A DNA stretch of 39,074 nt from Oscillospiraceae bacterium (GCA_031262125.1 JAISII010000169.1:1-39074), one strand, 5' to 3'; shown: positions 7,780 to 28,255, numbered from the stretch's first letter. Program-made: numbers and translations. The notes: generated from the sequence alone by a model not told the origin.

Positions 7780-7814
7780 AATCGCCCCACCGCAAAATTA
7801 GCGGCAGGGCGATT
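7780..7814 (-). terminator. Terminator downstream of the 1160-aa surface protein gene (potentially bidirectional)
   Basis: AATCGCCC (7780-7787) pairs with GGGCGATT (7807-7814). An inner 4-bp extension (7790-7793 with 7801-7804) follows a 2-nt internal loop. T-rich tracts are present on both strands. Confidence 0.6.
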
Positions 7815-7858: not shown

Positions 7859-10800
7859 TTATTTGTTAAATATACCCGGGATTACCTCGCCGTCAGGTCC
7901 GTCGTGCTGCAAAAGCCAAGGAGTATCAAAGAAAACAATCTCACCTTTATAGTCAACATAGAAATCAAGGTCCGGCGTTGATACAGTCTCATAAATTCCG
8001 CTGAAACTATTTGAATATGTAACACGCATCTTATAGCGTACTCTTTTTGAGTCAAGGTAGCATCTTTGGTAAATGTCAAAATAATCATCGCTAACATCTA
8101 ACATCATGCCATCCCTTGCTTTAATCGAAACATCACACCAAGAACCCCTATAACCGACCCATTCAGGGTCATTATCGTAATCCTTATTAATGTACAAATC
8201 GGTATCCACACACATAACTTCTATTTTCCAGCCCAGATATTCAAAATCCGATGCTTGCATTTCGCCCTGACTATAGAAGCTAATCAGCTCGGTAACTTCA
8301 TCACGGTCTGGCAGCCAGTTGCCGTTACCGGTTACTTCACTCATCGGTGCATTGAATCGTGGCTTCCATTTTAAGGTTGGAGTTATTCCTCCCACATGAA
8401 TATCCCAATCCGTCTCATAAACTTGGATTTGTTCACCATCAACAACCTTATACACCCTTGCCACCATATGCCAAAGCCCACGCTCAGTAAGTCGATTTAG
8501 AGGGTGATAGCCATAATAATTAACAGTTTCGGTGTTATTAGGGTCGTTTTGCTTGGTAAGCCAATATACATCAATATATTCGCCTGAAGAGTAGTTTATA
8601 TTCAGCCCTTCAGCCCAAACATAATCACCGTCATCGCCCATGGGGTAAAACACTCCTTCAGAGTAGCCTGCCGTATATAGCGGTGGCGTTACGAACAGTC
8701 GGTCGTCGGTAGTGAATATTTTATACGAACCCACGATAGAATCGTAGCCGTATGCACTTATTGTATAGTTTATTGTAAATTCTTTGCCATATTTTTTTGT
8801 TGCAAGGAAAGGTTTGGTTATTGTTTTATATGTCCAATACGCATCTTCATCATCACACCAATACGAGATGCTGATTTCATCCGCGGACGGACCTATAACT
8901 TGGGGGTTAAGCACACTATCAGGCATCAGGTTATATTCTTGGTTTTCATCTGAGCCAACATATTGATAAGAAGCCACTTTGCCGCCCGTCATCGTGCGGT
9001 TTTTAACGGTAAATACCTCGTCTACGGTATAGTAGTAATTGGTGTTTGCACCGGGACCGTATAGGATTATAACAACTACCTTAAACTGCCCTCCGGGCAC
9101 CAAATCAGCTTGTGTCAGCTCGTTGTTGTCAAGGTCGTGCCATCTGAACAGCTTTGAATCGGGTTGTTGTGTAAAAGCCGCAACCGATTCGTCAAACACC
9201 ACATGGGCATTAAGTTCTGAGAGTGTAACAGGGTACTCCAGCTCTTCATCAATTTCAAGCTCCACATGGTTAGAAATATTCATTCCAAGCACCCTAACTC
9301 TGTACGATAGCGGTGTCGGGGCATAATTTACCGCAGTGTTGCCCGTTGGGGTTACTAAGCAAGTTACCATATAATCGCCCGCATATTTAACCTTATAAGG
9401 TCCGGGTCCCGTATACAAGGTATCATTGCCGAATTTTACTGTATAACTGAGCGTATATGTTGCATCCGGCGTAGTAATTGTAGGAGCAACAATACAATCT
9501 TGAAAATCGTTGTTAAATGTCAGTTCAACATTTTGCATAGTTTGGGCTGCCAAGGTTGAAGATATGAGCATAGAAGAAGCAAAATGAAAATACTCGGTTT
9601 CGATGTTATCACCGTTTTTATGGTAGCAATAGTCGGCAGCATCGCCTAAATCTATAAGTGCATAAATACCAAAAGATTTTGCATGGTCGTAAGCGGTAAC
9701 CCAATCAATCGATTCATACCAAGGGTAATTATCAAGGTTTGCAAAATTTGCACCCGCAGCTCTAAATTTTTGATTATTGCTCCAGCCCATATATATAATC
9801 TCGGCTTTTCCGCCAAGTTCCTCAAACCATGTCGGCAACCCCGATAATACTGGTGCTTCTATTGCTTGCGGATAGGTAAAGTTTTTAGAGGTATACGACA
9901 GTGCGGTTTTAAGCTCATATTTTTCAATCTCGAAAATATAATAATCGCTGACTGTGCCATAGCCGTCTGCCGCAATTTGAAAATAAACCTTATGCTCGCC
10001 AACTTCTTTAAAAGACGGCGGTGTTGCAAGGTTATATTCGCCCTCTTGTGTGCCGTACATTAATGTATAGTCGGCATCAAGAGTGGTTACGGTAACAGCA
10101 GGTGCTGCAAAAAATACATTATCAAACACGGCTGTTGTGCCGCTTGTGGGTTTTGTGTATTCAACAGCAGGCAGCCACTTGGCATACAATGTAATATCAC
10201 CGCTCGAGCCGAGCTCAATGCTCTCTACCCTATCTTCCCACACGCCGTCATCGGTATACCAACCGTCAAAAACATAGTCTTCACGTGTTGCCGGTTGCAA
10301 TGTAACAATACTATCGGCACTGTACAACGTTGGGTTAAGATAATAATTTTCGCCGCCGTTTAGCTCATATGTAATGTTATAAAATGTCGGCAAGTTTTCC
10401 AGCATTTTGCCGTCGGCACCAAAGGCATATGTGCCTATGGGCATATCGCAATAAGTGTTATAAACACTGAAAATTCCGCTTGTTTTTACAACGCCGCCCC
10501 AGTTGGAGTAGTAATAATCTTCGCCTGATTTATACAACCCGTTACCCGTAGTATCGCCGTTAATATAAAGGTAAAGTGTGCCGTCAACGTCTACAATGCC
10601 GTCAAGCATTTTGCCGTCGGCTCCAAAAGAGTATGACTTGCCGGCCGGTAAATCACAATAGGTTGATTCTACATAGTATCTGCCATCGGTGAAAATCACA
10701 CCGCCCCAATCGGAGAAGTAATAATCTTCACCCACTTTATATAAACCATTACCTGCAGTAACCCCGTTAATATAAAGGTAAAGTATATCGTCTTTCTCAA

Positions 10801-11341
10801 CAATTCCATTCACCATTTTGCCGTCGGTACCAAAGGTGTAGTTGCCAACCGGCAAATCGCAGAAAGTTGTGTCTACATAATAGGTTAAGCCTGCTATAAT
10901 AACGCCGCCCCAAGCAACAAAGTAATAGGCGTTGTTAATTTTATGCAAACCATACGGGGCAGTTATGCCGTTAATAAAATAGTGCCGTGTACCATCGATT
11001 TCTACAATACCGTTAAGCATTTTGCCGTCGGCATCGATTGTATAGTTCCTGCCAGCCGGCAAATCGCAATAGGTTGCTGCTGCATAATATGTGCCGTCGG
11101 TTAATATCACACCGCCCCAATCGGCAAGGTAATAGTCGTCGTCGATTTTAAACAAACCCTGCACAGAAGTTATGCCGTCAACATAGAGCAATTTTGTGCC
11201 GTCGTCTTGTTCAACAATGCCGGTAAAGTCAGACGTTATCGCCTGTGGTGCATCATCGGCAAAAGCAGTAACACCGCAAACCGTAAACGTTGTTGCTAAC
11301 ATAATTAGTGTTAAGGTAACGCAGAGTATTCTTTTAAACAT
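7859..11341 (-). CDS. Secreted cell-surface protein. Layout: signal peptide, 4 x ~65-aa cell-wall-binding-type repeats, a Listeria-Bacteroides (Flg_new-type) repeat, then ~770 aa of unassigned sequence that is probably Ig-like and adhesin-like.
   Basis: 1160-aa ORF. Signal peptide MFKRILCVTLTLIMLATTFTVCGVTAFA|DD. Repeats of the form LYLYINGxTxGNGLYKxGEDYYxSDWGGVIxTDGRYYVxSTYCDLPAGxSYxFGADGKMLxG span aa ~40-315. NITYELNGGENYYLNP...YVFDGWYTDDG...ITLYAKW (aa ~318-389) is the Listeria-Bacteroides repeat pattern. The rest carries recurring xxYTLxY...G.Y.V...NY...I motifs. Confidence 0.85.
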   Translation of the reverse strand: MFKRILCVTLTLIMLATTFTVCGVTAFADDAPQAITSDFTGIVEQDDGTKLLYVDGITSVQGLFKIDDDYYLADWGGVILTDGTYYAAATYCDLPAGRNYTIDADGKMLNGIVEIDGTRHYFINGITAPYGLHKINNAYYFVAWGGVIIAGLTYYVDTTFCDLPVGNYTFGTDGKMVNGIVEKDDILYLYINGVTAGNGLYKVGEDYYFSDWGGVIFTDGRYYVESTYCDLPAGKSYSFGADGKMLDGIVDVDGTLYLYINGDTTGNGLYKSGEDYYYSNWGGVVKTSGIFSVYNTYCDMPIGTYAFGADGKMLENLPTFYNITYELNGGENYYLNPTLYSADSIVTLQPATREDYVFDGWYTDDGVWEDRVESIELGSSGDITLYAKWLPAVEYTKPTSGTTAVFDNVFFAAPAVTVTTLDADYTLMYGTQEGEYNLATPPSFKEVGEHKVYFQIAADGYGTVSDYYIFEIEKYELKTALSYTSKNFTYPQAIEAPVLSGLPTWFEELGGKAEIIYMGWSNNQKFRAAGANFANLDNYPWYESIDWVTAYDHAKSFGIYALIDLGDAADYCYHKNGDNIETEYFHFASSMLISSTLAAQTMQNVELTFNNDFQDCIVAPTITTPDATYTLSYTVKFGNDTLYTGPGPYKVKYAGDYMVTCLVTPTGNTAVNYAPTPLSYRVRVLGMNISNHVELEIDEELEYPVTLSELNAHVVFDESVAAFTQQPDSKLFRWHDLDNNELTQADLVPGGQFKVVVIILYGPGANTNYYYTVDEVFTVKNRTMTGGKVASYQYVGSDENQEYNLMPDSVLNPQVIGPSADEISISYWCDDEDAYWTYKTITKPFLATKKYGKEFTINYTISAYGYDSIVGSYKIFTTDDRLFVTPPLYTAGYSEGVFYPMGDDGDYVWAEGLNINYSSGEYIDVYWLTKQNDPNNTETVNYYGYHPLNRLTERGLWHMVARVYKVVDGEQIQVYETDWDIHVGGITPTLKWKPRFNAPMSEVTGNGNWLPDRDEVTELISFYSQGEMQASDFEYLGWKIEVMCVDTDLYINKDYDNDPEWVGYRGSWCDVSIKARDGMMLDVSDDYFDIYQRCYLDSKRVRYKMRVTYSNSFSGIYETVSTPDLDFYVDYKGEIVFFDTPWLLQHDGPDGEVIPGIFNK
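10397..11224 (-). repeat. Four tandem ~195-bp (65-aa) wall-binding-type coding repeats
   Basis: Recurring DNA strings such as aagcattttgccgtcggc and caccgccccaatcgg recur with ~195-nt spacing. At protein level each unit is three ~20-aa aromatic/Gly sub-repeats, like choline-/glucan-binding (CW_binding_1-type) repeats. Confidence 0.8.
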
Positions 11342-11498: not shown

Positions 11499-11529
11499 AA
11501 ATCCCCTCTGCCATAGACAAAGGGGATTT
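11499..11529 (-). terminator. Rho-independent terminator of the scaffoldin gene
   Basis: AAATCCCCT (11499-11507) pairs with AGGGGATTT (11521-11529). On the minus strand it is followed by TTTGCGTTTC. Confidence 0.7.
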
Positions 11530-11586: not shown

Positions 11587-14500
11587 TTAAGCAATAACTT
11601 TGCCGCTTGCATCAAAGGTGTATTCCATCGGTACAGAAAGACCATTGGTGATTTCTGCAAAGAAGGTTTGGTCAGTAATAAGTTTGCCGCCTTCGGTTAC
11701 ATAGTAATAATCACCGTCTACTGCAATCAAGCCCAAAGGTGCGGGGTTGCCGTTTTGATAGAGATAGATGCCGTCGGTTTTTGTTACAAAACCATCAAGC
11801 ATTTTACCATCGACTCCAAAAGTGTAGTTGCCAATCGGCAAATCACAGTTGGTAACATCTACATAATATGTGCCGTCGGTGTTAATTACGCCGCCCCAGC
11901 TTGCAAAGTAATAATCGCCGTCTAACTCAAACAAACCATATGGAGTGGTAATTCCGTTAATGTAGAGATACAGTATACCGTCAATCTCTACCATACCATT
12001 AAGCATTTTGCCGTCTGCACCGAAAGAGTAAGACAGGCCCGCCGATAAATCACAATAGGTTGTATCTACATGATAACTGCCATCGGTTTTAATTACGCCA
12101 CCCCAATCAGAGAGGTAATAATCATCGCCTATTTTGTATAAACCTTTGCTTGAAGTATCGCCGTTAATATAAAGGTAAAGTGTACCGTCGTTTTCTACAA
12201 TACCATTAAGCATTTTGCCATCGGCACCGAAATAGTACGACCTGTCTGCCGGCAAATCACAATAGGTTGTTACTACATGGTATCTGCCATCGGTGGTAAT
12301 TACACCGCCCCAATCAGAGAGGTAGTAATCGTCGCCAATTTTGTATAACCCTTTACTTGTAGTGTCGCCGTTAATATAAAGGTAAAGTGTGCCTTCGTTT
12401 TCTACAACACCGTTAAGCATTTTGCCGTCTGCACCAAAATAGTACGACCAGCCTGCTGGTATATCACAATAGGTTGTATCTACATGGTATCTGCCGTCTG
12501 TGAAAATTACGCCGCCCCAATAGGAGAGGTAGTAATCGTCGCCTATTTTGAATAAACCTTTACTTGCAGTATCGCCGTTAATATAAAGGATACCGTCGTA
12601 AATGCCGTTAAGCATTTTGCCGTCTGCTCCGAAATAATACGACCTGCCTGCCGGTAAATCGCAGTAAGTATTTGCAACATGGTATCTGCCATTGGCAAGA
12701 TTAATGCCGCCCCAATCGGAGAGATAATAATCATCTCCTATTTTGTACAAACCGTTGCTTGTGGTGTCGCCGTTAATATAAAGGTAAGATGTATCATCGC
12801 TTTCTAAAACACCGTTAAGCATTTTACCGTCGGCTCCAAAATAGTACGATCTGCCTGCCGGCATATCACAATAGGTTGTTTCTACATGGTATCTGCCGTC
12901 TGTGAAGATTACGCCGCCCCAATTGGAGAGATAATAATCGTCGCCGACTTTATATAAACCGTTAGCAGTAGTTACGCCGTCAAGGTAAAGGTAAAGTGTT
13001 CCTTCTTTTTCGACTATTTCGTTAATGCCTTTGTAATCTTCGCCGAAAATCATTCCGTAAATTTCGCCTTTTTGTGCATAGCCATTATCGCTGAAGAAAT
13101 ATACAGCATCTCCGATTTGTTGGAAGCCTTGCAAGCCTAAACCGTTCTGTGCATAAGCATAACCGTTACGGTCTGTATAGAAACCGTCAGCAATTTCTAC
13201 AGTTAAATCACGTGTGCCGTCTTCGTTAAAGAAGTACCAAGTTAAAACACCTTCCGCATTGGGAACAAGTTGTAACCCGCCCTCTAAACGGTAACCGGCT
13301 TCAAAGAAGTAATCTACATCATCGATTGTATACCAACCGCTGTAGTAGTATGAGGTTTCGCTATAGAAATAACGTGTACCGAAAAGTGTTTTCACCCATC
13401 CGCCAACGGGCTCCGGCTCGGGGTTAGTCGGGTCAGGTTCAGGATCTGTGGGATCCGGGTCAGGGTCTGTTGGGTCTGTTATCGGGTCAGTCGGGTCGGG
13501 CTCAGGATCCGTGGGATCCGGCTCAGGGTCAGTTGGATCCGGTTCGGGTTCTGTCGCTGCAGGTGTAATCGTAATAGCTTCAGAATCTGAAGTTAGAGAG
13601 AAAGAATCATCGATTACTGTAAAATATTCAACTAAGTAAGAGAGGTCTTCGGTTGTTGAATCTGCTACAGCCAAATCTCTGATATTCAAATCTACGCTGC
13701 CTGTGCCTGCAGCAATTACTTTAAATGTAATTGTAGCAAGAACTTTGCCCTCGTCGTTAAAGTCAAAACCATTAAAACCGGTTGCGGGATGGTAATAAGC
13801 AGAAGAGTTGAAATAGATTTTGCCTTCTTCGCCTGTGTTTGTCATTAAATTGCCGCCCGAAAGAACAGGGATACTGATTCTTTCAAATTCGATAACGTCC
13901 GAAGAGTATGTGATATGAACGTCAAGTGAAGTTGCAATTTTATCGGAAGGCAGGTTGAGTTCGTAAGTTGCTGTTACTGTGTCGCCGATATTTGCTTCGG
14001 TAAGTTCGAATGTGGAGATAACAGGTTCGGGAGTTGTGTATGTGTATGAATTTACCGACGTCGGGTCTACAGTCTCGTTGTCAAAATAGAAGCATACGCC
14101 GTCATACAAATCTGCAATTGCAATATCTTCTGTTTGGAAGTAATTGCCCCATTTTGTTGCGTCAAAATTATTGCGGAAGAGTATTCCTATAGCGGTATCT
14201 AAAACTTCGCCGGGAATAACTGCCGACCAAATATCGCCGTTTTCGCCGTAATTACCTGTTGCTGTCATCGGTATTGTGCCGTCTGAATTAGAGGTCCAAT
14301 AGAAGATAGCTGCAGGTGCCCAATTATATTTGTTCTCTAAGTATACTGTAATATCGGCAGTAGGAGGTGCTGTTGGAGGTTCTGTAGGTGGCACAGATTC
14401 TTTATATTCTCTCCAGTGGCCATCGAGTTTATCGGGCCAGGCTGTGCCTTCTGCTATGCTGGTGAAAGTGAATGTGCAGAAGTCCGGGTCGGCTGAGATT

Positions 14501-16602
14501 GTTGTGTCGATAGTTTCGTTGTAAACTATGGCATCCCATGTTGAGGCGGTAATTTCGCTTAACTCTTTTGTCGGGTCTATACGGCCAAACAATGCGTTTG
14601 CTCCGATATATTCAGCAGGTACCGAGTAGCTGTAGATGGGAGGATTGCTGCCCGTTACATATGTCGGGGCTATCCAAAGGTTGCCGCTTTCGTTCCATAC
14701 ATACAAGCCTGATTTTACACCGCTGCTTGCCCATGCAGGCAAGTTCTTTGTATCAAGATATACTGTTATGGGTTCGCTCGGTTCAACCGGTTCGGTTGCA
14801 GCTGTAGTAGGTTCGTCTACGGTGGGTTCTTCATCGCCCCCTGTCGGTGCGATGAGAATTTCGCAATAGCTGCCGTTGACTACATCTTCGCCAACATGGA
14901 AGATGATTTCTACTGTTGTCCAGGCCCATGTGATTTCTATTACTGCATTACCTGCAGAGTCTGCTAAGCCATCTTCATTCCAAGAATGACCGTTTGGTGA
15001 TTCTACAGAATCATACCATGCGCCGTTTGTTACTTTGAATTCGTATGTGCCTTTTACTAAGTGTTCAAAAACTAAGCCGTATGTGTTATCGTCAATTTTG
15101 GTCATTTCCAGACCGTCAACGTTCCAAGCACCAACTTCTTCGCCTACAAGACCAACTGTGCCTGCCAAATAGTATTTAACTTCCGGGGCAGGTTCGGGTT
15201 CGTCTTCAGTTGGGGCTTCGGTTGGTTCTGCAGGTGTGTATGTGTAAGAATTAACCGATTGCACATTTGTAGTGCTGTCAAAATAGAATGCAATGTTGTC
15301 ATGCAAGTCCGCTACTGCAATATCTTCTGTTTTGAAGTAGTCTTCCCATTTGTCTTTTGCAGTCTCGTACTCGTTGCGGAACAGAATACCGTCTGCACTG
15401 TCTAAAACTGTGCCGGGGATTACTGCTGACCAAAGGTCGCCGTTTGCTCCGCTTGCCCCTGTTGCTGTCATGTTTATTGTGCCGCTTGTTTCAGCTCCCC
15501 AATAATAGATTGCTGCAGGTGCCCAGTTGTAATTGTTTTCAAGGTATACTGTAATATCTTCCGAAGGTACGGGAGGTTCGGTTACGGGAGCCTCTGTGGG
15601 AGCGTCGGTTACAGGAGGTTCAGTAGGAGCTTCAGTGGGAGGCTCTGTTGGTTCTGCGGGTGCTCTGTATTCTCTCCAGTGTCCGGCGAATTTGTCTTCC
15701 CATGTTTTACCGTCTGCACTATCAAACGAGAATGTGCTGAATGCCGGGTCAGCCGAGATTGTTGTGTTGATAGTTTCGTTGTATACTATTGTATCCCATG
15801 TTGTACCGGTGATGTCGCTTAATTCTTTTGTCGGGTCAAGTCGAGCGAACAATGCACCTGCACCGATATATTCTGCAGGTACTGAATAACTATAGATTGG
15901 CGGGTTGCTGTTTTCTACATATGTCGGGGCAATCCAAAGGTTGCTGCCGCCGTTTATCCATACATACAAACCTGATTTTACGCCACTACTGGTCCATGGT
16001 GTAAAGTTTTTAGTATCTAAATATACTGTAATAGGTTCGGCAAGCACCGGAGGTTCGGTAACAGGTGCTTCTGTAATCGGCTCTGTGGGAGCATCAGTCG
16101 GATACTCTGTTACTTCTTCTGCTGTGGTCTCAACAACAGGAGGTTCGGTGGGTTCTGTTGGTGGTACTGTGGGCTCTTCTTCAGTTACAACTTCAAAAGC
16201 TACAACGTCAGACCATTTGCCGCCGCTTTTCGCAGAACTCTCCAGCGACCAAGCATAATCTTCGCCAATAGGAATATTGTTTGTTTGATTACCGCCATTG
16301 TCATTGAAAATTATGGTATCATACAAGCTAAGGTTTGCGTTTAAAGTGTAATAGTAATAGTTGTCATCGGCCTCAAGATATGCCATTTTTTGCCCTGGCC
16401 ATTCGGCATTTTTTGCACTTGAGCCGCTTTTGTACATATAAGCGTAAATGTCGTACCAGCCGCTGCTGATTGTTTTTGCTTTGCGGAAATAAATTTCCGA
16501 ACTGTCTGAACCATCTGCGGCTACTGCCGTAACAGCACAAACAGAAAACATTGCAGCAACCATTACTGCGGTTAAGATAATGCTAAGAATTCGTTTTGCC
16601 AT
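11587..16602 (-). CDS. Amylosome-type scaffoldin-like surface protein. Layout: signal peptide, CBM25/26-like starch-binding module, two copies each of two further module families, a beta-sandwich module, one cohesin-like domain, a PEPDPTD linker and a C-terminal wall-binding repeat array.
   Basis: 1671-aa ORF. Signal peptide MAKRILSIILTAVMVAAMFSVCAVTAVAA|DG. Module A: IYFRKAKTISSGWYDIYAYMYKSG..AEWPGQKM...YDTIIFNDNGGNQTNNI (WPGxxM/IIFN..G.QT pattern of CBM25/26). Module family B at aa 190-312 and 611-733; family C at aa 349-456 and 750-857. Cohesin-like domain at aa 861-1012. Six full, one partial and several degenerate wall-binding repeats at aa 1066-1671. There is no LPXTG motif and no SLH domain. 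Confidence 0.85.
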   Translation of the reverse strand: MAKRILSIILTAVMVAAMFSVCAVTAVAADGSDSSEIYFRKAKTISSGWYDIYAYMYKSGSSAKNAEWPGQKMAYLEADDNYYYYTLNANLSLYDTIIFNDNGGNQTNNIPIGEDYAWSLESSAKSGGKWSDVVAFEVVTEEEPTVPPTEPTEPPVVETTAEEVTEYPTDAPTEPITEAPVTEPPVLAEPITVYLDTKNFTPWTSSGVKSGLYVWINGGSNLWIAPTYVENSNPPIYSYSVPAEYIGAGALFARLDPTKELSDITGTTWDTIVYNETINTTISADPAFSTFSFDSADGKTWEDKFAGHWREYRAPAEPTEPPTEAPTEPPVTDAPTEAPVTEPPVPSEDITVYLENNYNWAPAAIYYWGAETSGTINMTATGASGANGDLWSAVIPGTVLDSADGILFRNEYETAKDKWEDYFKTEDIAVADLHDNIAFYFDSTTNVQSVNSYTYTPAEPTEAPTEDEPEPAPEVKYYLAGTVGLVGEEVGAWNVDGLEMTKIDDNTYGLVFEHLVKGTYEFKVTNGAWYDSVESPNGHSWNEDGLADSAGNAVIEITWAWTTVEIIFHVGEDVVNGSYCEILIAPTGGDEEPTVDEPTTAATEPVEPSEPITVYLDTKNLPAWASSGVKSGLYVWNESGNLWIAPTYVTGSNPPIYSYSVPAEYIGANALFGRIDPTKELSEITASTWDAIVYNETIDTTISADPDFCTFTFTSIAEGTAWPDKLDGHWREYKESVPPTEPPTAPPTADITVYLENKYNWAPAAIFYWTSNSDGTIPMTATGNYGENGDIWSAVIPGEVLDTAIGILFRNNFDATKWGNYFQTEDIAIADLYDGVCFYFDNETVDPTSVNSYTYTTPEPVISTFELTEANIGDTVTATYELNLPSDKIATSLDVHITYSSDVIEFERISIPVLSGGNLMTNTGEEGKIYFNSSAYYHPATGFNGFDFNDEGKVLATITFKVIAAGTGSVDLNIRDLAVADSTTEDLSYLVEYFTVIDDSFSLTSDSEAITITPAATEPEPDPTDPEPDPTDPEPDPTDPITDPTDPDPDPTDPEPDPTNPEPEPVGGWVKTLFGTRYFYSETSYYYSGWYTIDDVDYFFEAGYRLEGGLQLVPNAEGVLTWYFFNEDGTRDLTVEIADGFYTDRNGYAYAQNGLGLQGFQQIGDAVYFFSDNGYAQKGEIYGMIFGEDYKGINEIVEKEGTLYLYLDGVTTANGLYKVGDDYYLSNWGGVIFTDGRYHVETTYCDMPAGRSYYFGADGKMLNGVLESDDTSYLYINGDTTSNGLYKIGDDYYLSDWGGINLANGRYHVANTYCDLPAGRSYYFGADGKMLNGIYDGILYINGDTASKGLFKIGDDYYLSYWGGVIFTDGRYHVDTTYCDIPAGWSYYFGADGKMLNGVVENEGTLYLYINGDTTSKGLYKIGDDYYLSDWGGVITTDGRYHVVTTYCDLPADRSYYFGADGKMLNGIVENDGTLYLYINGDTSSKGLYKIGDDYYLSDWGGVIKTDGSYHVDTTYCDLSAGLSYSFGADGKMLNGMVEIDGILYLYINGITTPYGLFELDGDYYFASWGGVINTDGTYYVDVTNCDLPIGNYTFGVDGKMLDGFVTKTDGIYLYQNGNPAPLGLIAVDGDYYYVTEGGKLITDQTFFAEITNGLSVPMEYTFDASGKVIA
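11590..13407 (-). repeat. C-terminal array of wall-binding-type repeats: a degenerate ~135-aa lead-in, six full ~65-70-aa units and one partial unit
   Basis: Units are GTLYLYINGDTTSKGLYKIGDDYYLSDWGGVIxTDGRYHVxTTYCDLPAGRSYYFGADGKMLNGxVE. Neighbouring units are highly similar at the DNA level, and all resemble the repeats at 10397-11224. Confidence 0.85.
13408..13548 (-). repeat. In-frame 21-bp tandem repeat encoding a (PEPDPTD)n linker
   Basis: Protein reads PEPDPTDPEPDPTDPEPDPTDPITDPTDPDPDPTDPEPDPTNPEPEP. The DNA shows repeated ggatccgg(g/c)tcagggtc units. Confidence 0.9.
13567..14022 (-). other. Cohesin-like domain of the scaffoldin (aa ~861-1012)
   Basis: VISTFELTEANIGDTVTATYELNLPSDKIATSLDVHITYSSDVIEFERISIP...EGKIYFNSS...DEGKVLATITFKVIAAGTGSVDLNI follows the cohesin pattern G.TV.V.V.L......I...D..I.YD..VLE........G.I.F.......DG.LA.I.FKV....G....L. 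Boundaries are by eye. Confidence 0.65.
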
Positions 16603-16666
16603 AAATACATCTCCTCAAATTTTAATATCTTTTTACGTTATACAACGCAAATTTTCAGATAATACA

Positions 16667-16695
16667 ATTTTAACATTTTAAAATGCAATTTGCAA
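16667..16695 (-). promoter_or_regulatory. Putative promoter of the scaffoldin gene (extended -10)
   Basis: Minus strand: TTGCAA (16695-16690), a 17-nt spacer ending in TGt, then TAAAAT (16672-16667). The downstream leader shares TTATCTGAAAATTTGC and ATTTGAGGAGATG with the leader at 11342-11389. Confidence 0.5.
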
Positions 16696-16770
16696 GTGTT
16701 TTTTTGCATATTCACAATTTATTTATAATTAAATGCCAATCCTGTTTTTTTATTGCACTTTGTGTAGGAA

Positions 16771-16804
16771 AAAATCCCCTCCGTTAAAAAACGAAGGGGA
16801 TTTT
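16771..16804 (-). terminator. Rho-independent terminator of the amylase gene
   Basis: On the plus strand AAAATCCCCTcCGT pairs with ACGaAGGGGATTTT (one mismatch, loop TAAAAA). The minus-strand hairpin runs into TTTTTTCC. Confidence 0.8.
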
Positions 16805-16837
16805 AAGGTTAATTAAGTTATTTGTAATGCCATAAAC

Positions 16838-19800
16838 TTATACTTCGGGTATATAGGTGTAAGAATTTACAGACTGCAGTTCAGAGGCACTGTCGAAATA
16901 GAATGCAATGCCGTCATACAAATCTGCAACTGCAATGTCCTCTGTTTGATAATAATTGCCCCATGTTTCTTTAACTTCTTCGTAATTGTTGCGGAACAAA
17001 ATTGCTGTTGCACTTTCCAAAATTTCGCTCGGTATTACTGCCGACCAGATTGCACCATTACTTCCATTTTTGCCCGTTGCTGTCATTTCAATTATACCTA
17101 TTAAGCCGTCGGGGTTCCAATAGCGGATTGCTGCCGGTGCCCAATTATATTTATTTTCAAAATAAATTGTTATTGAAGAGCCGGGGTTAGGCGGGTAATA
17201 TGGGTCGCCGCCGCCGCCAACGTCGCTGAGTGTGCCGCTTTCGGGGTCAAACACTTTTTGGTCGTAAGAGGTATCTCCTGTTATTGAAATGCAGTTTGCA
17301 CCGCTTTGCAAGTTAATGTTATCCCACATATTGTAATAATCTGTGCCTACAGCACCGCCATCATCTTTAGCAACAAGTGTGGCAACTTCATAGCCTGTGC
17401 GGTAAATTGCAATATATGTCCAATCGCTGGGCAATTCATCCAAAAATGCATAGGTAGAGTTATCAGCATCGCCGGCTGCTTCAAGCTCTTTTGTCAGCGA
17501 GAAGCTTTCGCCGGTAGCTTTGTTGTAAATCCACAATTTTGCACCTTCTATAAACAGCCATTTGCCTGTTGCGGTTTTATCAGAACCGGATGTGCTGTCA
17601 TAAACATAGAAAGCATTGTCGCCGGGGTTCGGGTCGGGAGGATTGGGAGGTTCGGGTGGGTCAATTATCGGGTCGCCATGGTCAACATAAGACCATGTGC
17701 CTTTGCCGCCGGTTTCTATTGTAAGTGTGTTCATACCTGCCTGCCCTGCAAGGTCGGCAGTTTGGTTAGTTGTCTTCCAATCTGCTTTATCAACAAGCTT
17801 AAAGCAATCAACACCCGCCGGAACTGAAGTCGTATAGGCGGAAAAGTCAATTGAATAAACTCCATTGCCCTCGTCAGTACATTGAATAAACGGGTCAGTC
17901 GCAGTTGTTGGCAAGCCGCTTACACCCCAACCGTGAATATAAACAGATTCCCAGCCGCTGGGTTTTACAAAGTACAGTTTTAAGGGGATTGTAGCTTCAA
18001 CAGCATCGGGGTCATAATTGGCAATCAAATTACCTGAGGTAGAACCTGTAAGTTCATAAGCATTGTTGCTGCCAATGGTAATATTTTCCCATTTATCATA
18101 TACAATTGTCTTATCGCCCAAAGCTGCTTCTACTTCTGCACCTGTTGCCGGACCACCATCATAAGAACCTTTTACATTATAGATGGAGATATTGTTAACC
18201 GAGCTGCCTAAAGCAAAGCTGGCATAACGTGAATTATTGTCGGTGGGTGAATCGTTCTCGCCCAAATACCATGTGCCTGTGTCGTTATCACGTATCCACA
18301 GCAGTTTTGCATCGTCTAACGCCCAGCCTACTTTGTCGGCTACATAGAATGTTTTTGCGTTCGGGTCGGGCTCGGGAGGATTGGGAGGTTCGGGTGGGTC
18401 AACAATTATCGGACCGTCGCCATAGTCAACATAAGACCAAGTGCCTTTTAGCCCTTGTTGAATTGTAAGTGTGTTTTTGCCCTTCTCGCCTGCAATATTG
18501 TCGGTTTGCTTTGTTGCATTCCACTCTGCATCTGTTGTCGCAATTGTTTCAGTAAGTTTAAACATAGGCATACCCGGTGTGATTGCAGATGTATACGCCG
18601 AGAAGTCAAACGAATAAACACCATTACCTTCGTCTGTACATTCAAAGAACTGAGCATTTAAGCCGGTTCCACCCCAGCCGTAAACATAAACAGTCTGCCA
18701 ATCAGCGGGTTTTATAAAGTAGAGCTTTAATGGAATTGAATCTTCAACAGCATTGGGGTCATAATTAGCAATCAGTTCGCCTGTGGAGTTGCCTGTAAGT
18801 GCGTAAGCGTTGTTGCTGCCGATTGAGATATTTTCCCATTTGTTATAAACTATTGACGTATCATTCAGTGCAGCTTCAACTTCTGCACCTGTTGCAGGAC
18901 CACCTGCATAAGAACCCATAACATGGTATATTGAGATATTGCTTACATTTTTATCTAAAATGAATTCTGCATAGCGTGCATCGTTAGAAGGCAGTTCTTT
19001 AAAGCCCATATACCATTCGCCGGAAACATTATCATGTACCCAAAGGTCTGCTGCATTATCTAATGCCCATGCTACTTTGTCTACTACATAGAATAATTTT
19101 CTGTCGGGGTCTGGCTCCGGTTCGGTGTCAGGTACGGTGGTCGGTGTCGTGTCAGGTACGGTGGTGATTTCGCTGCCACCTGCAGGTTCGCCTACATTAC
19201 CTGTTTTCTCAAAATGTGCAAGATATTTTTGTATTAACGTAACATCGGCTACTGTAACACCTGATTCTTCATCGGCATTTGCCGCCGAAAGAGCTGTGCC
19301 TGTAATTGATTTAACTTTAGCCAAATGTTTTTGAATTTCGGTTGCATCGTCTACTGTTACTTTATTGTCGCCATTAGCATCGCCAATAATATAGCTGCCG
19401 GGGTTAATGACCGGAGCGGTAGTAGTTACAACGGGTGTAGTTGTAGTTATAACGGGTGTAGTTGTAGTTATAACGGGTGTTGTGGTGGTTATAATTGGTG
19501 TAGTTGTTGTAGATGTTTCTACACTTGTGGGTTGTTCATCGTCTTTTGCCGGCACAAGTATAACTTCCGGTGCAGGTGCCTCGGTAGGAACTTTGCCTGT
19601 GTATACTTTAAAAACCGAATTGGTAGTTAAAATATACGATTGGTTCTTTTCTACAAAAGGTCCTGTTGGTACTTTAGCAGCCGGATATTGAGGCGGCGGG
19701 TTTTTACCGCTGTTATCCATAAAAACAATGTGGCAACCTTCGGCATAACCTTTCGGCAGCTCGTAAAAATAATATCCGTAGCTAATTTCATCGTGCCTTG

Positions 19801-21709
19801 TCATTTTTTCGCCGGGCCACTCTGCATTAATAATCTGATTAACGCCTTCTTGCTCTCTATCCCACTTAGTACGCTTGCCATTGCTATGATACCATACATA
19901 GATGTTTGGAACATCATAACCCTTAGGATTACCATTCGAAAATTTAGTGTTATCCAAAACAACCCATACGCCGCTGCCATCTTTTTCTACTTTTTCGTAA
20001 TTATAGGTGTTGGTAACGGTTTTTGTGCCGTCGGTTGCAGTTAAGGTTACTTTGTATTTTGTACCTGCTTTGTCGTTTTCGCCCAAATAATAGTCGAAAT
20101 TGCCATTTGTAATAACATATTTTTGACCATTGTTAATCTGGAATGTGCCATAGGTTGCATTGTTGTAGCTGAAGTTTAATTTAAGGTAGCTTGTGCCAAA
20201 CTTTTTACTGTCGGATGAACTGGTAACAAAAGGTGTTGTTGCAGCCTGACGCAGAACAGCTACGCCGCTGGAACCAATGTTACCCTTAATTTGACCACCC
20301 GAAACAGTAAATTTGTCGCCTGTTACCATATCGGTATAATTGCCGTCTGCAAGCTTGTTTGCTTTAATATTAACCGAGCCGGAGTTAGAAGCAGCTGTGT
20401 TAACAATAACAGCACCGCTTGTTCCACGCTCTATATAAGCAAAAGTTCCCGACGAAGCAACATATTCGGATTGACCGATAAATGCATTATGAAATTTATT
20501 AACTTCGGCGACGGGTACACTTTTCCAAGAAGGGTCGCCTATTTCGCCCATAAGACCTGATTCGCCTGTTCGGGAGAAATAAAGGGCGGTTGCATGTTCT
20601 CTTGAGCCAACAAGTGCCCATGTTTTAACCATATCCGAAATGCTAAAATCTTTGGTATAATCGATGTTACGACTACCGTCCGGATTGAACTCATCACCGG
20701 CATAACAGTCGTGAGATTCTGCCCACAAAACGTATTTATTAGGTGTGTTACCTGCATTGTAAGAGCCTTGAGCAGCAGCGGAGGCACTATGATTTTTTAC
20801 TCCGTTGCGAATATTACGACCTATAACATTGTCTGTTATAGACATAAATTCGGTATAAGCATCAAACCCTCTCGAACGCCCATTGCCTGTGGTGTTTAAG
20901 ATTTCGCCGTAATAGTAAGGGGTTACACCTTTGCCTTGTGCATATGCTGTTGTGGCGTTTAAAACATTCGGCCAGAAGTCTGAAGCATATTGACCATCAT
21001 AAGGAGTTTCGATATGCTTTGCAGCATCAAAACGGAAGCCGTCAACGCCTACATCAATACACTGTTTAAGCAGGTCAGTAACACTTTGCTGAATGTATGA
21101 GTTGCCGGTGTTAACACTTTGCATGCCGCTAAGGCGACCTTGCACCTGCCACTTGATATTCTTGTCGTCTGTATTCTGTGATTCTTGGTGAAAATAGTCT
21201 GAGGTTATACCTGCGTTAAAAATCTGCGGCTCATACTGCTTAACTATATCATCAAGGGTACCTTCGCTTTTGCCGGCTGTACCCAAATGGTTTGCCACGA
21301 TATCTACAATAATTTTAATGCCGTACTTATCAGCCTCGGTACACAAAGACCTCAATTCGTCTTCGCTGCCCAAATAGTTAGTTTCAATTGAATAGCTAAC
21401 CGGCTGATAGAGCTTCCACCACTGCCCGCCAACGTCGATATTTTTGGGTGTGTATGTCTTGGGCATTTGCACCGGCGAAGTTTGCACCGTGCTGTAGCCC
21501 GACTGTGCTATAACCGGAAGCTGTGCCTTAATGTTGTTGTAAGACCAGTTCCATGCGTGCAGAATTACACCATCTTGTACATTAGTTGCCAAGTTATACT
21601 CGCCTGTTGTGCCAGCTGCTGCAACATTAATTGTAGCGGGCAAAACCGCCATTGTTGCAAGCAGAGTAACAGCCAACAGCAAACTCAGCAATCTTTTTGC
21701 TTTTTTCAT
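16838..21709 (-). CDS. Secreted multi-modular GH13 alpha-amylase (AmyE-like) with a CBM26-like module, a Thr-rich linker, an internal dockerin, duplicated ~230-aa modules and a C-terminal family-C module
   Basis: 1623-aa ORF. Signal peptide MKKAKRLLSLLLAVTLLATMAVLPATINVAAA|G. GH13 conserved regions: DIVANH; GFRFDAAKH (D228); YYYGEIL (E269); LWAESHD (D334). CBM-like segment: IYVWYHSNG...AEWPGEKM...HIVFMDNSG. Dockerin at aa 774-835. AGGAGG RBS at ~21718-21723. Confidence 0.9.
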   Translation of the reverse strand: MKKAKRLLSLLLAVTLLATMAVLPATINVAAAGTTGEYNLATNVQDGVILHAWNWSYNNIKAQLPVIAQSGYSTVQTSPVQMPKTYTPKNIDVGGQWWKLYQPVSYSIETNYLGSEDELRSLCTEADKYGIKIIVDIVANHLGTAGKSEGTLDDIVKQYEPQIFNAGITSDYFHQESQNTDDKNIKWQVQGRLSGMQSVNTGNSYIQQSVTDLLKQCIDVGVDGFRFDAAKHIETPYDGQYASDFWPNVLNATTAYAQGKGVTPYYYGEILNTTGNGRSRGFDAYTEFMSITDNVIGRNIRNGVKNHSASAAAQGSYNAGNTPNKYVLWAESHDCYAGDEFNPDGSRNIDYTKDFSISDMVKTWALVGSREHATALYFSRTGESGLMGEIGDPSWKSVPVAEVNKFHNAFIGQSEYVASSGTFAYIERGTSGAVIVNTAASNSGSVNIKANKLADGNYTDMVTGDKFTVSGGQIKGNIGSSGVAVLRQAATTPFVTSSSDSKKFGTSYLKLNFSYNNATYGTFQINNGQKYVITNGNFDYYLGENDKAGTKYKVTLTATDGTKTVTNTYNYEKVEKDGSGVWVVLDNTKFSNGNPKGYDVPNIYVWYHSNGKRTKWDREQEGVNQIINAEWPGEKMTRHDEISYGYYFYELPKGYAEGCHIVFMDNSGKNPPPQYPAAKVPTGPFVEKNQSYILTTNSVFKVYTGKVPTEAPAPEVILVPAKDDEQPTSVETSTTTTPIITTTTPVITTTTPVITTTTPVVTTTAPVINPGSYIIGDANGDNKVTVDDATEIQKHLAKVKSITGTALSAANADEESGVTVADVTLIQKYLAHFEKTGNVGEPAGGSEITTVPDTTPTTVPDTEPEPDPDRKLFYVVDKVAWALDNAADLWVHDNVSGEWYMGFKELPSNDARYAEFILDKNVSNISIYHVMGSYAGGPATGAEVEAALNDTSIVYNKWENISIGSNNAYALTGNSTGELIANYDPNAVEDSIPLKLYFIKPADWQTVYVYGWGGTGLNAQFFECTDEGNGVYSFDFSAYTSAITPGMPMFKLTETIATTDAEWNATKQTDNIAGEKGKNTLTIQQGLKGTWSYVDYGDGPIIVDPPEPPNPPEPDPNAKTFYVADKVGWALDDAKLLWIRDNDTGTWYLGENDSPTDNNSRYASFALGSSVNNISIYNVKGSYDGGPATGAEVEAALGDKTIVYDKWENITIGSNNAYELTGSTSGNLIANYDPDAVEATIPLKLYFVKPSGWESVYIHGWGVSGLPTTATDPFIQCTDEGNGVYSIDFSAYTTSVPAGVDCFKLVDKADWKTTNQTADLAGQAGMNTLTIETGGKGTWSYVDHGDPIIDPPEPPNPPDPNPGDNAFYVYDSTSGSDKTATGKWLFIEGAKLWIYNKATGESFSLTKELEAAGDADNSTYAFLDELPSDWTYIAIYRTGYEVATLVAKDDGGAVGTDYYNMWDNINLQSGANCISITGDTSYDQKVFDPESGTLSDVGGGGDPYYPPNPGSSITIYFENKYNWAPAAIRYWNPDGLIGIIEMTATGKNGSNGAIWSAVIPSEILESATAILFRNNYEEVKETWGNYYQTEDIAVADLYDGIAFYFDSASELQSVNSYTYIPEV
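17669..19099 (-). repeat. Two tandem copies (R1 aa 871-1100, R2 aa 1119-1347) of a ~230-aa bipartite module separated by PPEPPNPP linkers. A diverged half-copy (R3) follows at 17225-17614.
   Basis: R1 and R2 align along their whole length, for example FYVxDKVxWALDxAxLW...NISIYxVxGSYxGGPATGAEVEAAL...KWENIxIGSNNAYxLTG...LIANYDPxAVExxIPLKLYFxKPxxWxxVYxxGWG...CTDEGNGVYSxDFSAYT...GTWSYVD. Confidence 0.85.
19205..19390 (-). other. Dockerin module (aa ~774-835) inside the amylase
   Basis: Two Ca-binding-loop plus helix segments: GDANGDNKVTVDDATEIQKHLAKV and NADEESGVTVADVTLIQKYLAHF. These match the duplicated D.N.D..V...D.T.IQ..LA pattern of ruminococcal dockerins. Confidence 0.8.
19412..19510 (-). 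repeat. In-frame 24-bp tandem repeat encoding a (TTTTPVIT)n linker
   Basis: Protein reads TTTTPIITTTTPVITTTTPVITTTTPVVTTTAP. The DNA shows repeated gtagttgtagttataacgggt units. Confidence 0.9.
20246..21613 (-). other. GH13 catalytic domain plus C-domain (aa ~33-488)
   Basis: The four canonical alpha-amylase regions listed above closely resemble B. subtilis AmyE (GFRFDAAKH, YGEIL, ESHD). Boundaries are by eye. Confidence 0.85.
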
Positions 21710-26617: not shown

Positions 26618-28255
26618 CTATTTTAAAACTCCCACAATTTCATCCACAAAAGCTTCAATCTCGTTTTTACGCAGCTTTAGGCTTGCAATGTTAGAAATAA
26701 GCCTTGCCGAAATCGGCGTAATTTCTTCAATAACCTCTAACCCGTTTTCTTTAAGGGTCGAGCCCGTTTCTACAATATCAACAATGGCATCTGCCAAACC
26801 AACCAGCGGTGCAAGCTCAACCGAGCCCTCGATTTTTATGATTTTAACGTCCATATTTTTGCTCTCGAAAAATTTGCGAGCCACAACAGGGTATTTGGTT
26901 GCAATTGTTTTTATGTTATAGCCGGCGTAAAAATCCTCGCCTACCTTAGAAGCTAACGCAAACCTGCACCTTCCAAAGCCCAAATCATACAGCTCATAAA
27001 ATATTGTACCGTTTTCTAATATAGTATCTTTGCCCACAACGCCCAAATCGCACACGCCGTTTTCTACATATGTAATAACATCGGGGGCTTTTGCAAGCAC
27101 AATTTCAAACACTCTATCGCCTTTGCTTACCTTTAAAATCAACTTGCGGCCTTTGTTTTCAATCTCGTCAACATTATAGTCAAGTTGTTTAAACAGTGCT
27201 ACGGTGTCTTTTTCTAAGCGACCTTTTGTCAGTGCAATCCTAATCGGGGCAGCGTTGTTATCTTTGCTGCTTTTGGTTTTGCCGCCCAAAACAATTTGTG
27301 TTACCGCACTTACATCAACTGCAAAGCCTGCCGCACCCATGGGCATATCAAAGGCTTCCATAAGTCTGTCGTACCGTCCGCCGGTAATAATCGCATCGCC
27401 ATGCCCGTCGGCATAGCCCGAAAAAACCATACCGCTGTAATAATCGGTTTTAAGCACTTGCCCCAAATCTATAATAATGTTTGTATGCAGGTTTTGCTTT
27501 TTTAAAGTGCCGTACAAATCTTCAAGGTATTCTAACGCATATTTTTCATCGTAACCACGGCAGAGCTTGCGTGCCTTTTCAAAAACCTCTTCGCCGCCGA
27601 AAAGTCGTGTAACCTTACGCAGTGCCAAGCTTTCTTCAGATGCTTCCAGCCCGTCCAAAATCTCGGTTAGTGCCGAATAGTTTTTGCTTTGGCAAGCATC
27701 GGTTATGCTTTGCTTTTGCTCGGGTGTTGCGTTAAGGCGGTTAATAAATGCCTTAATAAAGCCCGAATGCCCGATTTCTATACGGAATCCGGATAATACA
27801 CTCTGCACGCTCTCAATAGCAGCCGACAGCACCTCTAAATCGGCATCCTTACCCTCTGCACCCAAAAGCTCGGTGCCAATTTGATACACCTCATTAGAAC
27901 GCCCCGAGAGTGCAGGCACAATACGGTAAACCGGCTGGCTGTAATACAGTCTTATGGGCAGCTGCTCCCCACGCAAGCGGGACGACACCATACGGGCAAT
28001 CGGCAAGGTAGAATCGCTCCTTGCACATAAAATTCGCCCTTTGTTGTCTATGGTTTTAAACATATCCTCCGAATGCAGCATATTGCCCTGCAACGAAAAC
28101 AAGTCCAAAAACTCAAACCCCGGGGTAATAACTGGGTTATAATTGCGTTTTTGCAGCACCTTTTGAATTTTCTCGGTAGTTTTTGAAAGAGCAATGCACT
28201 CTTCAAAAAGCAAATCACGGCTGCCCTCGGGGGCGGTTTTGTTGTATTTTTTCAT
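26618..28255 (-). CDS. hisZG: Fused HisZ-HisG: ATP phosphoribosyltransferase regulatory subunit (aa 1-~325) joined to a short-form catalytic HisG (aa ~338-545)
   Basis: The N-terminal part has aaRS-like HisZ motifs (PEGSRDLLFEE, YYSQPVYR, DYYSGMVFSGY, GGRYDRL). After the linker GGKTKSSKDNNAAP, the C-terminal part reads IRIALTKGRLEKD...DLGVVGKD...KIEGSVELAP..GLADAIVDIVETGSTLKENGL, which is HisG short form. It is one uninterrupted 545-aa ORF. Confidence 0.8.
   Translation of the reverse strand: MKKYNKTAPEGSRDLLFEECIALSKTTEKIQKVLQKRNYNPVITPGFEFLDLFSLQGNMLHSEDMFKTIDNKGRILCARSDSTLPIARMVSSRLRGEQLPIRLYYSQPVYRIVPALSGRSNEVYQIGTELLGAEGKDADLEVLSAAIESVQSVLSGFRIEIGHSGFIKAFINRLNATPEQKQSITDACQSKNYSALTEILDGLEASEESLALRKVTRLFGGEEVFEKARKLCRGYDEKYALEYLEDLYGTLKKQNLHTNIIIDLGQVLKTDYYSGMVFSGYADGHGDAIITGGRYDRLMEAFDMPMGAAGFAVDVSAVTQIVLGGKTKSSKDNNAAPIRIALTKGRLEKDTVALFKQLDYNVDEIENKGRKLILKVSKGDRVFEIVLAKAPDVITYVENGVCDLGVVGKDTILENGTIFYELYDLGFGRCRFALASKVGEDFYAGYNIKTIATKYPVVARKFFESKNMDVKIIKIEGSVELAPLVGLADAIVDIVETGSTLKENGLEVIEEITPISARLISNIASLKLRKNEIEAFVDEIVGVLK

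Follow-up and report, generated by a model that had tools for sequence, protein, structure and literature searches.

A Putative Amylosome-Type Locus in Which a Single-Cohesin Scaffoldin Gene Adjoins a Dockerin-Bearing α-Amylase Gene in an Oscillospiraceae Bacterium

Overview of the Locus

A single cohesin and a single dockerin are encoded in adjacent genes of a 39,074-nucleotide stretch of DNA from an Oscillospiraceae bacterium (GCA_031262125.1, JAISII010000169.1:1-39074), the whole of which is referred to here as the window. The dockerin belongs to a secreted GH13 α-amylase and the cohesin to a scaffoldin with starch-binding modules, the features by which an amylosome, a cellulosome-like complex acting on starch, is recognized. 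On balance, the locus is probably of the amylosome type, with a monovalent, starch-binding scaffoldin held at the cell surface and with the neighboring amylase as one of several partners of its cohesin. The original prediction for this DNA, made from the sequence alone, had taken the two modules for a cognate 1:1 pair and had added that other dockerin proteins of the genome may compete for the single cohesin. The latter proposal is the better supported half, with competitors that would be encoded elsewhere in the genome; of the former, a 1:1 stoichiometry per molecule follows from the monovalent cohesin, but exclusivity is disfavored by the conservation of the locus, the terminators, the dockerin type, and the precedent of known systems.

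In the proposed mechanism, an uncultured Oscillospiraceae- or Acutalibacteraceae-like bacterium would own the locus and secrete the amylase, whose dockerin would be flanked by flexible linkers that separate it from the catalytic module and, on the opposite side, from starch-binding modules. The scaffoldin would bind starch through its CBM26, X25-like, and "b" modules and present its single cohesin, and its C-terminal repeats, with no sortase signal, probably hold it on the cell surface. The cohesin most likely takes the amylase dockerin in a Ca2+-dependent manner, and this docking would place a single enzyme on each scaffoldin molecule, tethered between the cell and the starch granule. The same cohesin should also accept further dockerins of this type from other parts of the genome, and the amylase in turn may dock on other cohesins.

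The Cohesin Module of the Scaffoldin

The cohesin occupies residues 861–1012 of the scaffoldin (13567..14022, minus strand), of which residues 868–1003 are covered by the profile match. It is a divergent member of its family: Pfam Cohesin (PF00963) scores 22.2 bits on the scaffoldin over residues 868–986, below the cutoff of 24.1, a PDB search with the single sequence gave only a marginal match (7urp, E = 0.031), and a word-indexed homolog search with the module alone found nothing. An exhaustive search of 1.84 billion representative proteins recovered 36 proteins at E ≤ 1e-3, the strongest of them about 30% identical, with a maximum identity of 42% in the same collection. Many of these relatives match two to six times along their length and are of the scaffoldin type, with an N-terminal dockerin followed by tandem cohesins; several members of the clade lie above the Pfam Cohesin cutoff, and one carries three CBM26, three cohesins, and a dockerin.

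A clade profile built from 28 of these domains (A1) matched 7urp in the PDB at E = 1.2e-14 and the cohesin of Ruminococcus bromii Amy4 (9qf3, residues 1117–1225) at E = 6.4e-8, with classic cellulosomal cohesins further down, such as the ScaB cohesin 4ums (E = 4.4e-5). As a side observation, 7urp was deposited under the name "Ribonucleases G and E", and no mention of it was found in the literature searched. When the clade profile was rebuilt without the query, it recovered the scaffoldin open reading frame (ORF) at E = 8.8e-32, the next ORF of the window standing at 0.86, and profile comparison gave no hidden second cohesin in the amylase, in the third secreted protein described below, or in the N-terminal 855 residues of the scaffoldin. 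The earlier statement that the only cohesin-like domain of the window lies at residues 861–1012 of the scaffoldin, next to the amylase, is borne out at the level of sequence profiles, which is the level at which uniqueness holds here, as cohesins recognizable by structure only exist (PMC13463774).

The fold assignment is consistent with this identification. An AlphaFold2 model of the module, computed from the 28-sequence alignment, has a mean predicted local distance difference test (pLDDT) of 83.3, a predicted template modeling score (pTM) of 0.77, and nine strands. A Foldseek search of the PDB with this model returned cohesins at all ranks from 1 to 31 and for 34 of the top 35 matches, the best being 4ums (E = 1.5e-8, TM 0.67–0.69). 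The region 13567–14022 is thus predicted to adopt the nine-stranded cohesin jelly-roll on which the original prediction depended. A model computed from the single sequence was discarded, its pLDDT being 55.6 and its Foldseek matches meaningless.

The Dockerin Module of the Amylase

The dockerin spans residues 774–835 of the amylase (19205..19390, minus strand) and consists of two 22-residue segments 34 residues apart, with linkers on both sides. Within the whole amylase, Pfam Dockerin_1 (PF00404) scores 22.0 bits over residues 776–830, just below the cutoff of 22.9, and for the isolated 71-residue module it scores 29.4 bits (E = 8.9e-7), above the cutoff. A family hidden Markov model (HMM), built from 58 distinct dockerins of homologous amylases with the window's own dockerin excluded, was run against the six-frame translation of the window and found the amylase ORF at E = 3.6e-22, the runner-up ORF standing at E = 0.48; a regular-expression scan of the window for Ca2+ loops agrees with a single dockerin. 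The position at which the original prediction had placed the only dockerin of the window was therefore right, again at the level of sequence profiles.

The module has the type I organization, in which a 12-residue EF-hand-like loop and a helix are duplicated, and its 34-residue spacing is that of 111 homologous dockerins. Loop 1 (DANGDNKV) has the canonical Ca2+ ligands, which are Asp or Asn at positions 1, 3, and 5 and Asp at position 12. Loop 2 (NADEESGV) offers N1, D3, E5, and D12, all of them oxygen ligands, and is possibly functional as a Ca2+ site, with Asn at position 1 and Glu at position 5 being rare (2 and 1 of the 58 family dockerins, respectively). The two halves are identical at 11 of 22 positions (family mean, 13.0), the difference lying in loop positions 1–7, and their helix parts are identical at 9 of 14 positions (family mean, 8.5). 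The helices, VTVDDATEIQKHLAK and VTVADVTLIQKYLAH, both bear the family-wide signature D-[AV]-T-x-I-Q-K-[HY], written DATxIQK(H/Y) in the following.

In solved type I complexes, the cohesin is contacted from dockerin helix positions such as 10, 11, 17, 18, and 22. At the contact positions, the window dockerin reads V-D/Q-K/K in half 1 and V-A/Q-K/H in half 2, and because the halves are nearly alike there, the sequence provides no argument against two binding orientations. The asymmetry that had been read as evidence against dual-mode binding is real for the Ca2+ loops, on which that argument was built, but it does not extend to the recognition helices, and the argument is not supported. Similarly, the dockerin is internal, as had been noted, with 788 residues C-terminal to it; this placement is nothing special, however, since in the approximately 60 relatives inspected the Ca2+ loops lie at about residues 670–800, and in every one at least 200 residues follow the dockerin.

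Architecture of the Two Proteins

The amylase gene (16838..21709, minus strand) was identified by its ORF and by Pfam matches to Alpha-amylase and to three CBM26 stretches, and encodes a secreted protein of 1623 residues. From the N-terminus, a signal peptide is followed by the GH13 catalytic region, a CBM26, a Thr-rich linker, and the dockerin, after which come two units composed of an X module and a CBM26, a third X module, and a C-terminal "b" module. The catalytic residues Asp228, Glu269, and Asp334 are present, together with His141, Arg226, and His333, and all six are invariant across the family alignment. The nearest solved structure is that of R. bromii Amy16 (9qf9, E = 1.8e-93), with the Bacillus subtilis α-amylase next. 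The enzyme is a singleton in the protein collection, where the next best protein is 40% identical, and its best-segment identity among GTDB genomes is 52%. At E ≤ 1e-10, it has 3694 relatives, which are GH13, CBM26, and dockerin enzymes, many of them from Ruminococcus or R. bromii. The nearest named relatives are metagenome-assembled genomes (MAGs) labeled Ruminococcus, Anaeromassilibacillus, Clostridia, and Acutalibacteraceae, none of which is close, the best amylase segment being the 52% just mentioned.

The region after the dockerin (16838-19100, minus strand) is a tandem expansion that ends in a "b" module of the scaffoldin type. In the relatives of about 1060 residues, only about 270 residues lie beyond the dockerin, and the family consensus is a single unit of X module and CBM26; judged by this module order, the post-dockerin unit of the window amylase is multiplied relative to the family. 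The C-terminal "b" module itself (residues 1506–1621; 16847..17194, minus strand) is 62.9% identical over 116 residues to residues 343–457 of the scaffoldin. At this 63% identity, the module is common to the scaffoldin and the amylase C-terminus and is lineage-specific, and the paralogous modules within the window are 63–72% identical in general.

The gene for the monovalent scaffoldin (11587..16602, minus strand) was delimited by its ORF, Pfam matches, and module comparison, and encodes 1671 residues arranged as a signal peptide, a CBM26, an a+b pair, an X25-like module, a second a+b pair, the cohesin, a PEPDPTD linker, and approximately nine C-terminal repeats. The CBM26 (residues 46–109; 16276..16467, minus strand) is well supported by Pfam (49.1 bits, E = 6.2e-13). 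The first a+b pair (residues 188–462; 15217..16041, minus strand) was defined by module alignment, and the second (residues 605–855; 14038..14790, minus strand) is 72% identical to it; any resemblance of the "b" module to CBM26 is weak, and the "a" module matches no family. Between the two pairs, an X25-like core of the pullulanase X25 or SusE-F type (residues 498–535; 14998..15111, minus strand) is suggested by sub-threshold matches to Pfam X25_BaPul_like (E = 0.024 in the whole scaffoldin and E = 2.1e-4 on the isolated module). The scaffoldin, too, is a singleton in the protein collection; a scan of genome contigs with the scaffoldin and a scan of metagenome contigs with the a+b module alignment each returned no relative.

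The repeat region of the scaffoldin (residues 1060–1671; 11590..13425, minus strand) contains approximately nine repeats of about 65–69 residues with a recurring YYFGADGKMLNG motif, which resembles the consensus of the choline-binding or cell-wall-binding type of repeat. In Pfam, where this type is represented by Choline_bind_1 and Choline_bind_3, PF19127 scores 17.7–21.9 bits at best (cutoff, 27) and PF01473 scores 14.3 (cutoff, 20.5). Matches to the NCBIfam models of the choline-binding regions of PspA and PspC, at E = 2e-6 to 5e-4, also stay far under the cutoffs, and none of the solved structures in the PDB was matched by the repeats in a sequence search. The sortase signal of Sca2 and Sca5 of the R. 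bromii amylosome is absent, as a sequence scan of the scaffoldin revealed neither an LPxTG motif nor a C-terminal hydrophobic segment. The repeats are a probable non-covalent surface anchor of the scaffoldin, and if they do serve as one, the scaffoldin would be held in a manner distinct from sortase, surface-layer homology (SLH), or transmembrane anchoring. Repeats of the choline-binding superfamily bind glucans in other proteins, and starch or glucan binding is a possible alternative role.

Conservation of the Gene Order

The closest relative of the amylase (P0002) resides in a locus (L001) with the order PolC, AI-2E transporter, his operon, amylase, and radical-SAM gene, in which there is no scaffoldin and the interval between the amylase and the radical-SAM gene holds only a 76-codon ORF. 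On a second MAG contig (L005), the his operon is likewise followed by the amylase, and this shared order indicates that the position of the amylase is ancestral. The scaffoldin gene and the third gene would then represent a lineage-specific gain, or would have been lost in the relative. The 1061-residue amylase homolog of R. bromii has no cohesin neighbor, and the cohesin profile detected no separate cohesin gene within flanks of up to 10 kb at 84 related amylase loci; in 6 of the 84, it matches inside the amylase ORF itself, as in Amy4.

The transcription signals agree with this pattern. A terminator-like hairpin with a U-run (16765..16804, minus strand), which was read by eye and confirmed by RNA folding, lies directly 3' of the amylase stop codon; its folding free energy is −21.8 kcal/mol (z = −5.66), and none of 200 shuffled sequences was as stable. 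This hairpin had been overlooked by the consensus terminator scan and was spotted on reading the sequence. The scan itself found a terminator-like hairpin with a 14-bp stem 3' of the scaffoldin stop codon (11499..11529, minus strand) and a terminator of the third gene (7780-7814). The amylase, scaffoldin, and third genes look like separate transcription units with no obvious operon, an idea that is weakened in particular by the strong hairpin directly after the amylase gene. The step from adjacency to a cognate relationship is not upheld: the adjacency is not conserved, as the syntenic ortholog and, within flanks of up to 10 kb, the 84 related loci have no neighboring cohesin gene, and the genes have terminators of their own.

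Relatives of the cohesin were also recovered in a metagenome scan seeded with a narrow cohesin alignment. In three human-gut contigs, a dockerin-bearing ORF of 1404–1406 residues (L086:4352-8569, L087:554-4771, and L089:4750-8961) directly precedes the gene of a scaffoldin that has a dockerin at its N-terminus as well as cohesins; the scaffoldin is complete, with three cohesins, in two of the contigs and is ended by the contig edge in the third. In L086, where the scaffoldin has three cohesins, the upstream ORF (1406 residues) combines an alkaline phosphatase and a dockerin with seven CBM26. The placement of a scaffoldin gene beside the gene of a dockerin protein is thus recurrent in the cohesin clade, but with other partners and with multivalent scaffoldins.

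Candidate Partners of the Cohesin

The only close relative of the scaffoldin modules that was found is P0157 (MDR0914375.1, "MAG: alkaline phosphatase [Oscillospiraceae bacterium]"), a protein in which an alkaline phosphatase is combined with a dockerin (29.8 bits), three CBM26, and an a+b pair that is 61% identical to the second pair of the scaffoldin, a level on a par with that among the paralogous modules of the window (63–72%). It also has in common with the window proteins an unusual TTTxP(I/V)(I/V) linker, comes from the same source set (NCBI, JGI/IMG, nr), and, like them, has no entry in the gene-position index; it may derive from a very close relative or from the same MAG, which is to be taken as a hint and not as a result. 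The helices of its dockerin, VTIADVTKIQKSLAA and VEIGDATEIQKFLAK, nearly match those of the window dockerin, so that a cohesin taking the amylase dockerin would be expected to take the P0157 dockerin too.

In the comparison of the amylase dockerin with residues 553–608 of P0157, the halves look swapped: counted by hand, and with numbers that are small, 13 + 13 of 22 positions are identical when the halves are aligned crosswise, and 11 + 9 when they are aligned in the same order. Such a swap would fit dockerin halves that are functionally interchangeable. Dockerin-bearing, CBM26-rich alkaline phosphatases recur with the cohesin clade (P0157 and L086) and may remove phosphate esters of starch inside the amylosome; a literature search found no paper that combines alkaline phosphatase, dockerin, and CBM26.

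The human-gut relatives of the cohesin point in the same direction as P0157, and so does precedent from R. bromii. In that species, three to five of the cohesins assayed were bound by the dockerins of Amy4, Amy9, and Amy10 (PMC4611034, Table 4; PMC5814915; PMC12663171), and docking is described as many-to-many with some constraints and with pairing independent of gene order (PMC4611034, PMC5814915, PMC12663171). The amylase dockerin of the window, which may likewise have multiple partners, carries the same DATxIQK(H/Y) signature in its helices as the R. bromii amylase dockerins that bind several cohesins. Genomes with such systems encode many dockerin proteins, namely 27 in R. bromii (PMC12663171) and 80 in R. 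difficilis (PMC13463774), and monovalent cohesin proteins with an anchoring role are an established class, with OlpA and OlpC as members and also R. bromii Sca2 (PMC4611034).

Alternative Explanations

The multi-partner, surface-held arrangement favored here is not without difficulties. Amy16 of R. bromii binds Amy4 and Sca3 but neither of the cell-bound Sca2 and Sca5 (PMC12663171, section 10), and the Sas20 dockerin binds Coh6 only (PMC9112005); given such narrow pairs, the compatibility of these two modules is not guaranteed. The atypical second loop of the dockerin could also weaken the second Ca2+ site, and the anchoring role proposed for the repeats derives from family matches below threshold. 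All of these weigh against the favored arrangement, and the specificity classes within the R. bromii amylosome (PMC9112005; PMC12663171, section 10) speak at the same time for the view that the two proteins are neighbors and not partners, the cohesin serving another class of dockerin, as R. bromii Coh6 takes only that of Sas20, and the amylase docking on a scaffoldin encoded elsewhere. In the closest relative, the orthologous amylase has no cohesin beside it, and its dockerin must find a distant partner; the three genes resemble separate transcription units; and with its nearest relatives at only about 30% identity, the cohesin has a specificity that is unreadable from homology. Nevertheless, this view is unlikely, as modules are common to the two proteins, in R. 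bromii the majority of amylase dockerins bind the majority of cohesins (PMC4611034), and the scaffoldins with the nearest-related cohesins adjoin a CBM26 dockerin protein in the human-gut contigs, which suggests that genomic linkage of partners is common in the clade. The opposite view, that the cohesin evolved to hold this amylase alone and that the adjacency reflects this dedication, draws on two genes that are adjacent and on the same strand, in a stretch of 39 kb where each of the two modules occurs once, on the "b" module that both proteins carry at 63% identity, and on the impression that the scaffoldin and third genes were inserted right beside a conserved amylase gene; by our own estimate, a dockerin gene would neighbor the scaffoldin gene by chance in only about 2–6% of cases (on the assumption of 27–80 dockerin genes among roughly 2000–2500 genes, with the counts from PMC12663171 and PMC13463774). 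We regard an exclusive pair as distinctly improbable, since the syntenic ortholog and, within flanks of up to 10 kb, the 84 related amylase loci lack the adjacency, the genes have separate terminators, the dockerin is of a conserved type that is promiscuous in R. bromii (PMC4611034), P0157 bears a near-identical dockerin, and known amylosome and cellulosome genomes have many dockerins per cohesin.

A further elaboration of exclusivity would make the locus a minimal, self-contained amylosome, in which a scaffoldin gene inserted beside an ancestral, his-operon-linked amylase is now the dedicated surface dock of that enzyme, the repeats are a new type of non-covalent wall-holding repeat, and the degenerate loop 2 enforces a single binding orientation; we consider this combination speculative and quite improbable. 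It is very improbable, indeed hardly credible, that the cohesin-like module is a structural β-sandwich with no dockerin binding, that is, a "non-cellulosomal" domain or a spacer. The Pfam Cohesin score below the cutoff and a 10–13-residue insertion with lower model confidence would fit this, as would the cohesin-like folds with other roles that appear in the Foldseek results (the copper-binding YcnI at rank 32, and complement and integrin domains from rank 36). However, the relatives of the module form tandem arrays of two to six copies, and the proteins in question have dockerins and CBM26 as well, which is the pattern of scaffoldins; the clade profile matches experimentally validated cohesins, and many of the cohesins that make up the top 31 structural matches were solved in complex with a dockerin.

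The Third Secreted Protein and the Surrounding Genes

The amylase and scaffoldin genes are part of a minus-strand trio that was delineated by ORF calling and is completed by the gene of a third secreted protein of 1160 residues (7859..11341, minus strand; ORF, Pfam, and module comparison). All three proteins have N-terminal signal peptides, and their hydrophobic stretches are N-terminal only. The N-terminus of the third protein (10352-11254, minus strand) contains the same repeats of about 65–69 residues as the scaffoldin, with 54–61% identity; after them come a Listeria-Bacteroides (Flg_new) repeat and a stretch of about 770 residues that matches no family. Family HMMs and profile comparison detected neither a cohesin nor a dockerin in it. 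It is probably a surface protein held in the same way as the scaffoldin.

Housekeeping genes fill the rest of the window and encode PolC, an AI-2E transporter, the histidine operon, IspG, Dxr, peptidases, a Mur ligase, and a radical-SAM enzyme. HisZ, which has a histidyl-tRNA-synthetase-like domain, and HisG form a single fused ORF of 545 residues (26618-28255, minus strand); in the syntenic relative L001, the two are separate genes of 390 and 217 codons.

Comparison with Known Systems

The closest known system is the R. bromii amylosome, which comprises Amy4/Sca1, Amy9, Amy10, Amy12, and Amy16 together with Sca2–Sca5 (PMC4611034, PMC5814915, PMC12663171). In both, secreted GH13 enzymes combine CBM26 with a dockerin of DATxIQK(H/Y) helices, cohesin proteins bear starch-binding X25 or CBM modules, and the window cohesin falls into the same divergent clade, whose profile matches the Amy4 cohesin (E = 6.4e-8). 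In contrast, the window amylase is only 36–40% identical to the R. bromii-type enzymes, and three X modules, two CBM26, and a "b" module follow its dockerin, where the R. bromii-type enzymes of about 1060 residues have a tail of about 270 residues. Moreover, the window scaffoldin ends in about 600 residues of repeats with no sortase motif, and its gene adjoins that of the amylase, unlike the situation of the 1061-residue homolog in R. bromii.

Among the individual scaffoldins, R. bromii Sca5 resembles the window protein in combining starch-binding modules, a cohesin, and a surface anchor, which is putative in the window protein, but it has two X25 regions, two cohesins, and a sortase signal, compared with the one cohesin and no LPxTG found here. 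R. bromii Sca2 is similar in its single cohesin and monovalent anchoring, and both Sca5 and Sca2 differ from the window scaffoldin in that the latter has additional a and b modules with no family match. The arrangement also recalls OlpA and OlpC of Clostridium thermocellum, monovalent cohesin proteins that tether single dockerin enzymes at the surface, as the scaffoldin of the window would do. Their single type I cohesins (3ul4 and 4dh2) are among the top structural matches, with a sequence identity of only about 16–17%; unlike the window scaffoldin, OlpA and OlpC use an SLH anchor, act on cellulose, and have no CBMs.

The amylosome concept is left unchanged by these observations, and many-to-many docking is still to be expected. 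What the locus would add is a different build of surface dock, in which a single cohesin is combined with many starch-binding modules and the C-terminus consists of repeats instead of a sortase signal, and it offers a compact, cloneable pair of enzyme and scaffoldin for studying cohesin–dockerin specificity in starch degradation. An uncultured lineage would thereby join the few bacteria in which amylosome-type machinery for resistant starch has been described. Amylosome-like systems beyond R. bromii have been described in R. difficilis, Ruminococcus sp. JE7B6, and their relatives, whose "group 7" cohesins (PMC13463774) are, like that of the window, divergent and hard for HMMs to recognize, and which likewise possess amylase–dockerin fusions and CBM26-bearing scaffoldins. 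The scaffoldins of those systems are transmembrane-anchored and carry multiple cohesins, with up to 80 dockerins to receive (PMC13463774), whereas the window encodes a scaffoldin with a single cohesin and a probable repeat-based hold on the cell surface.

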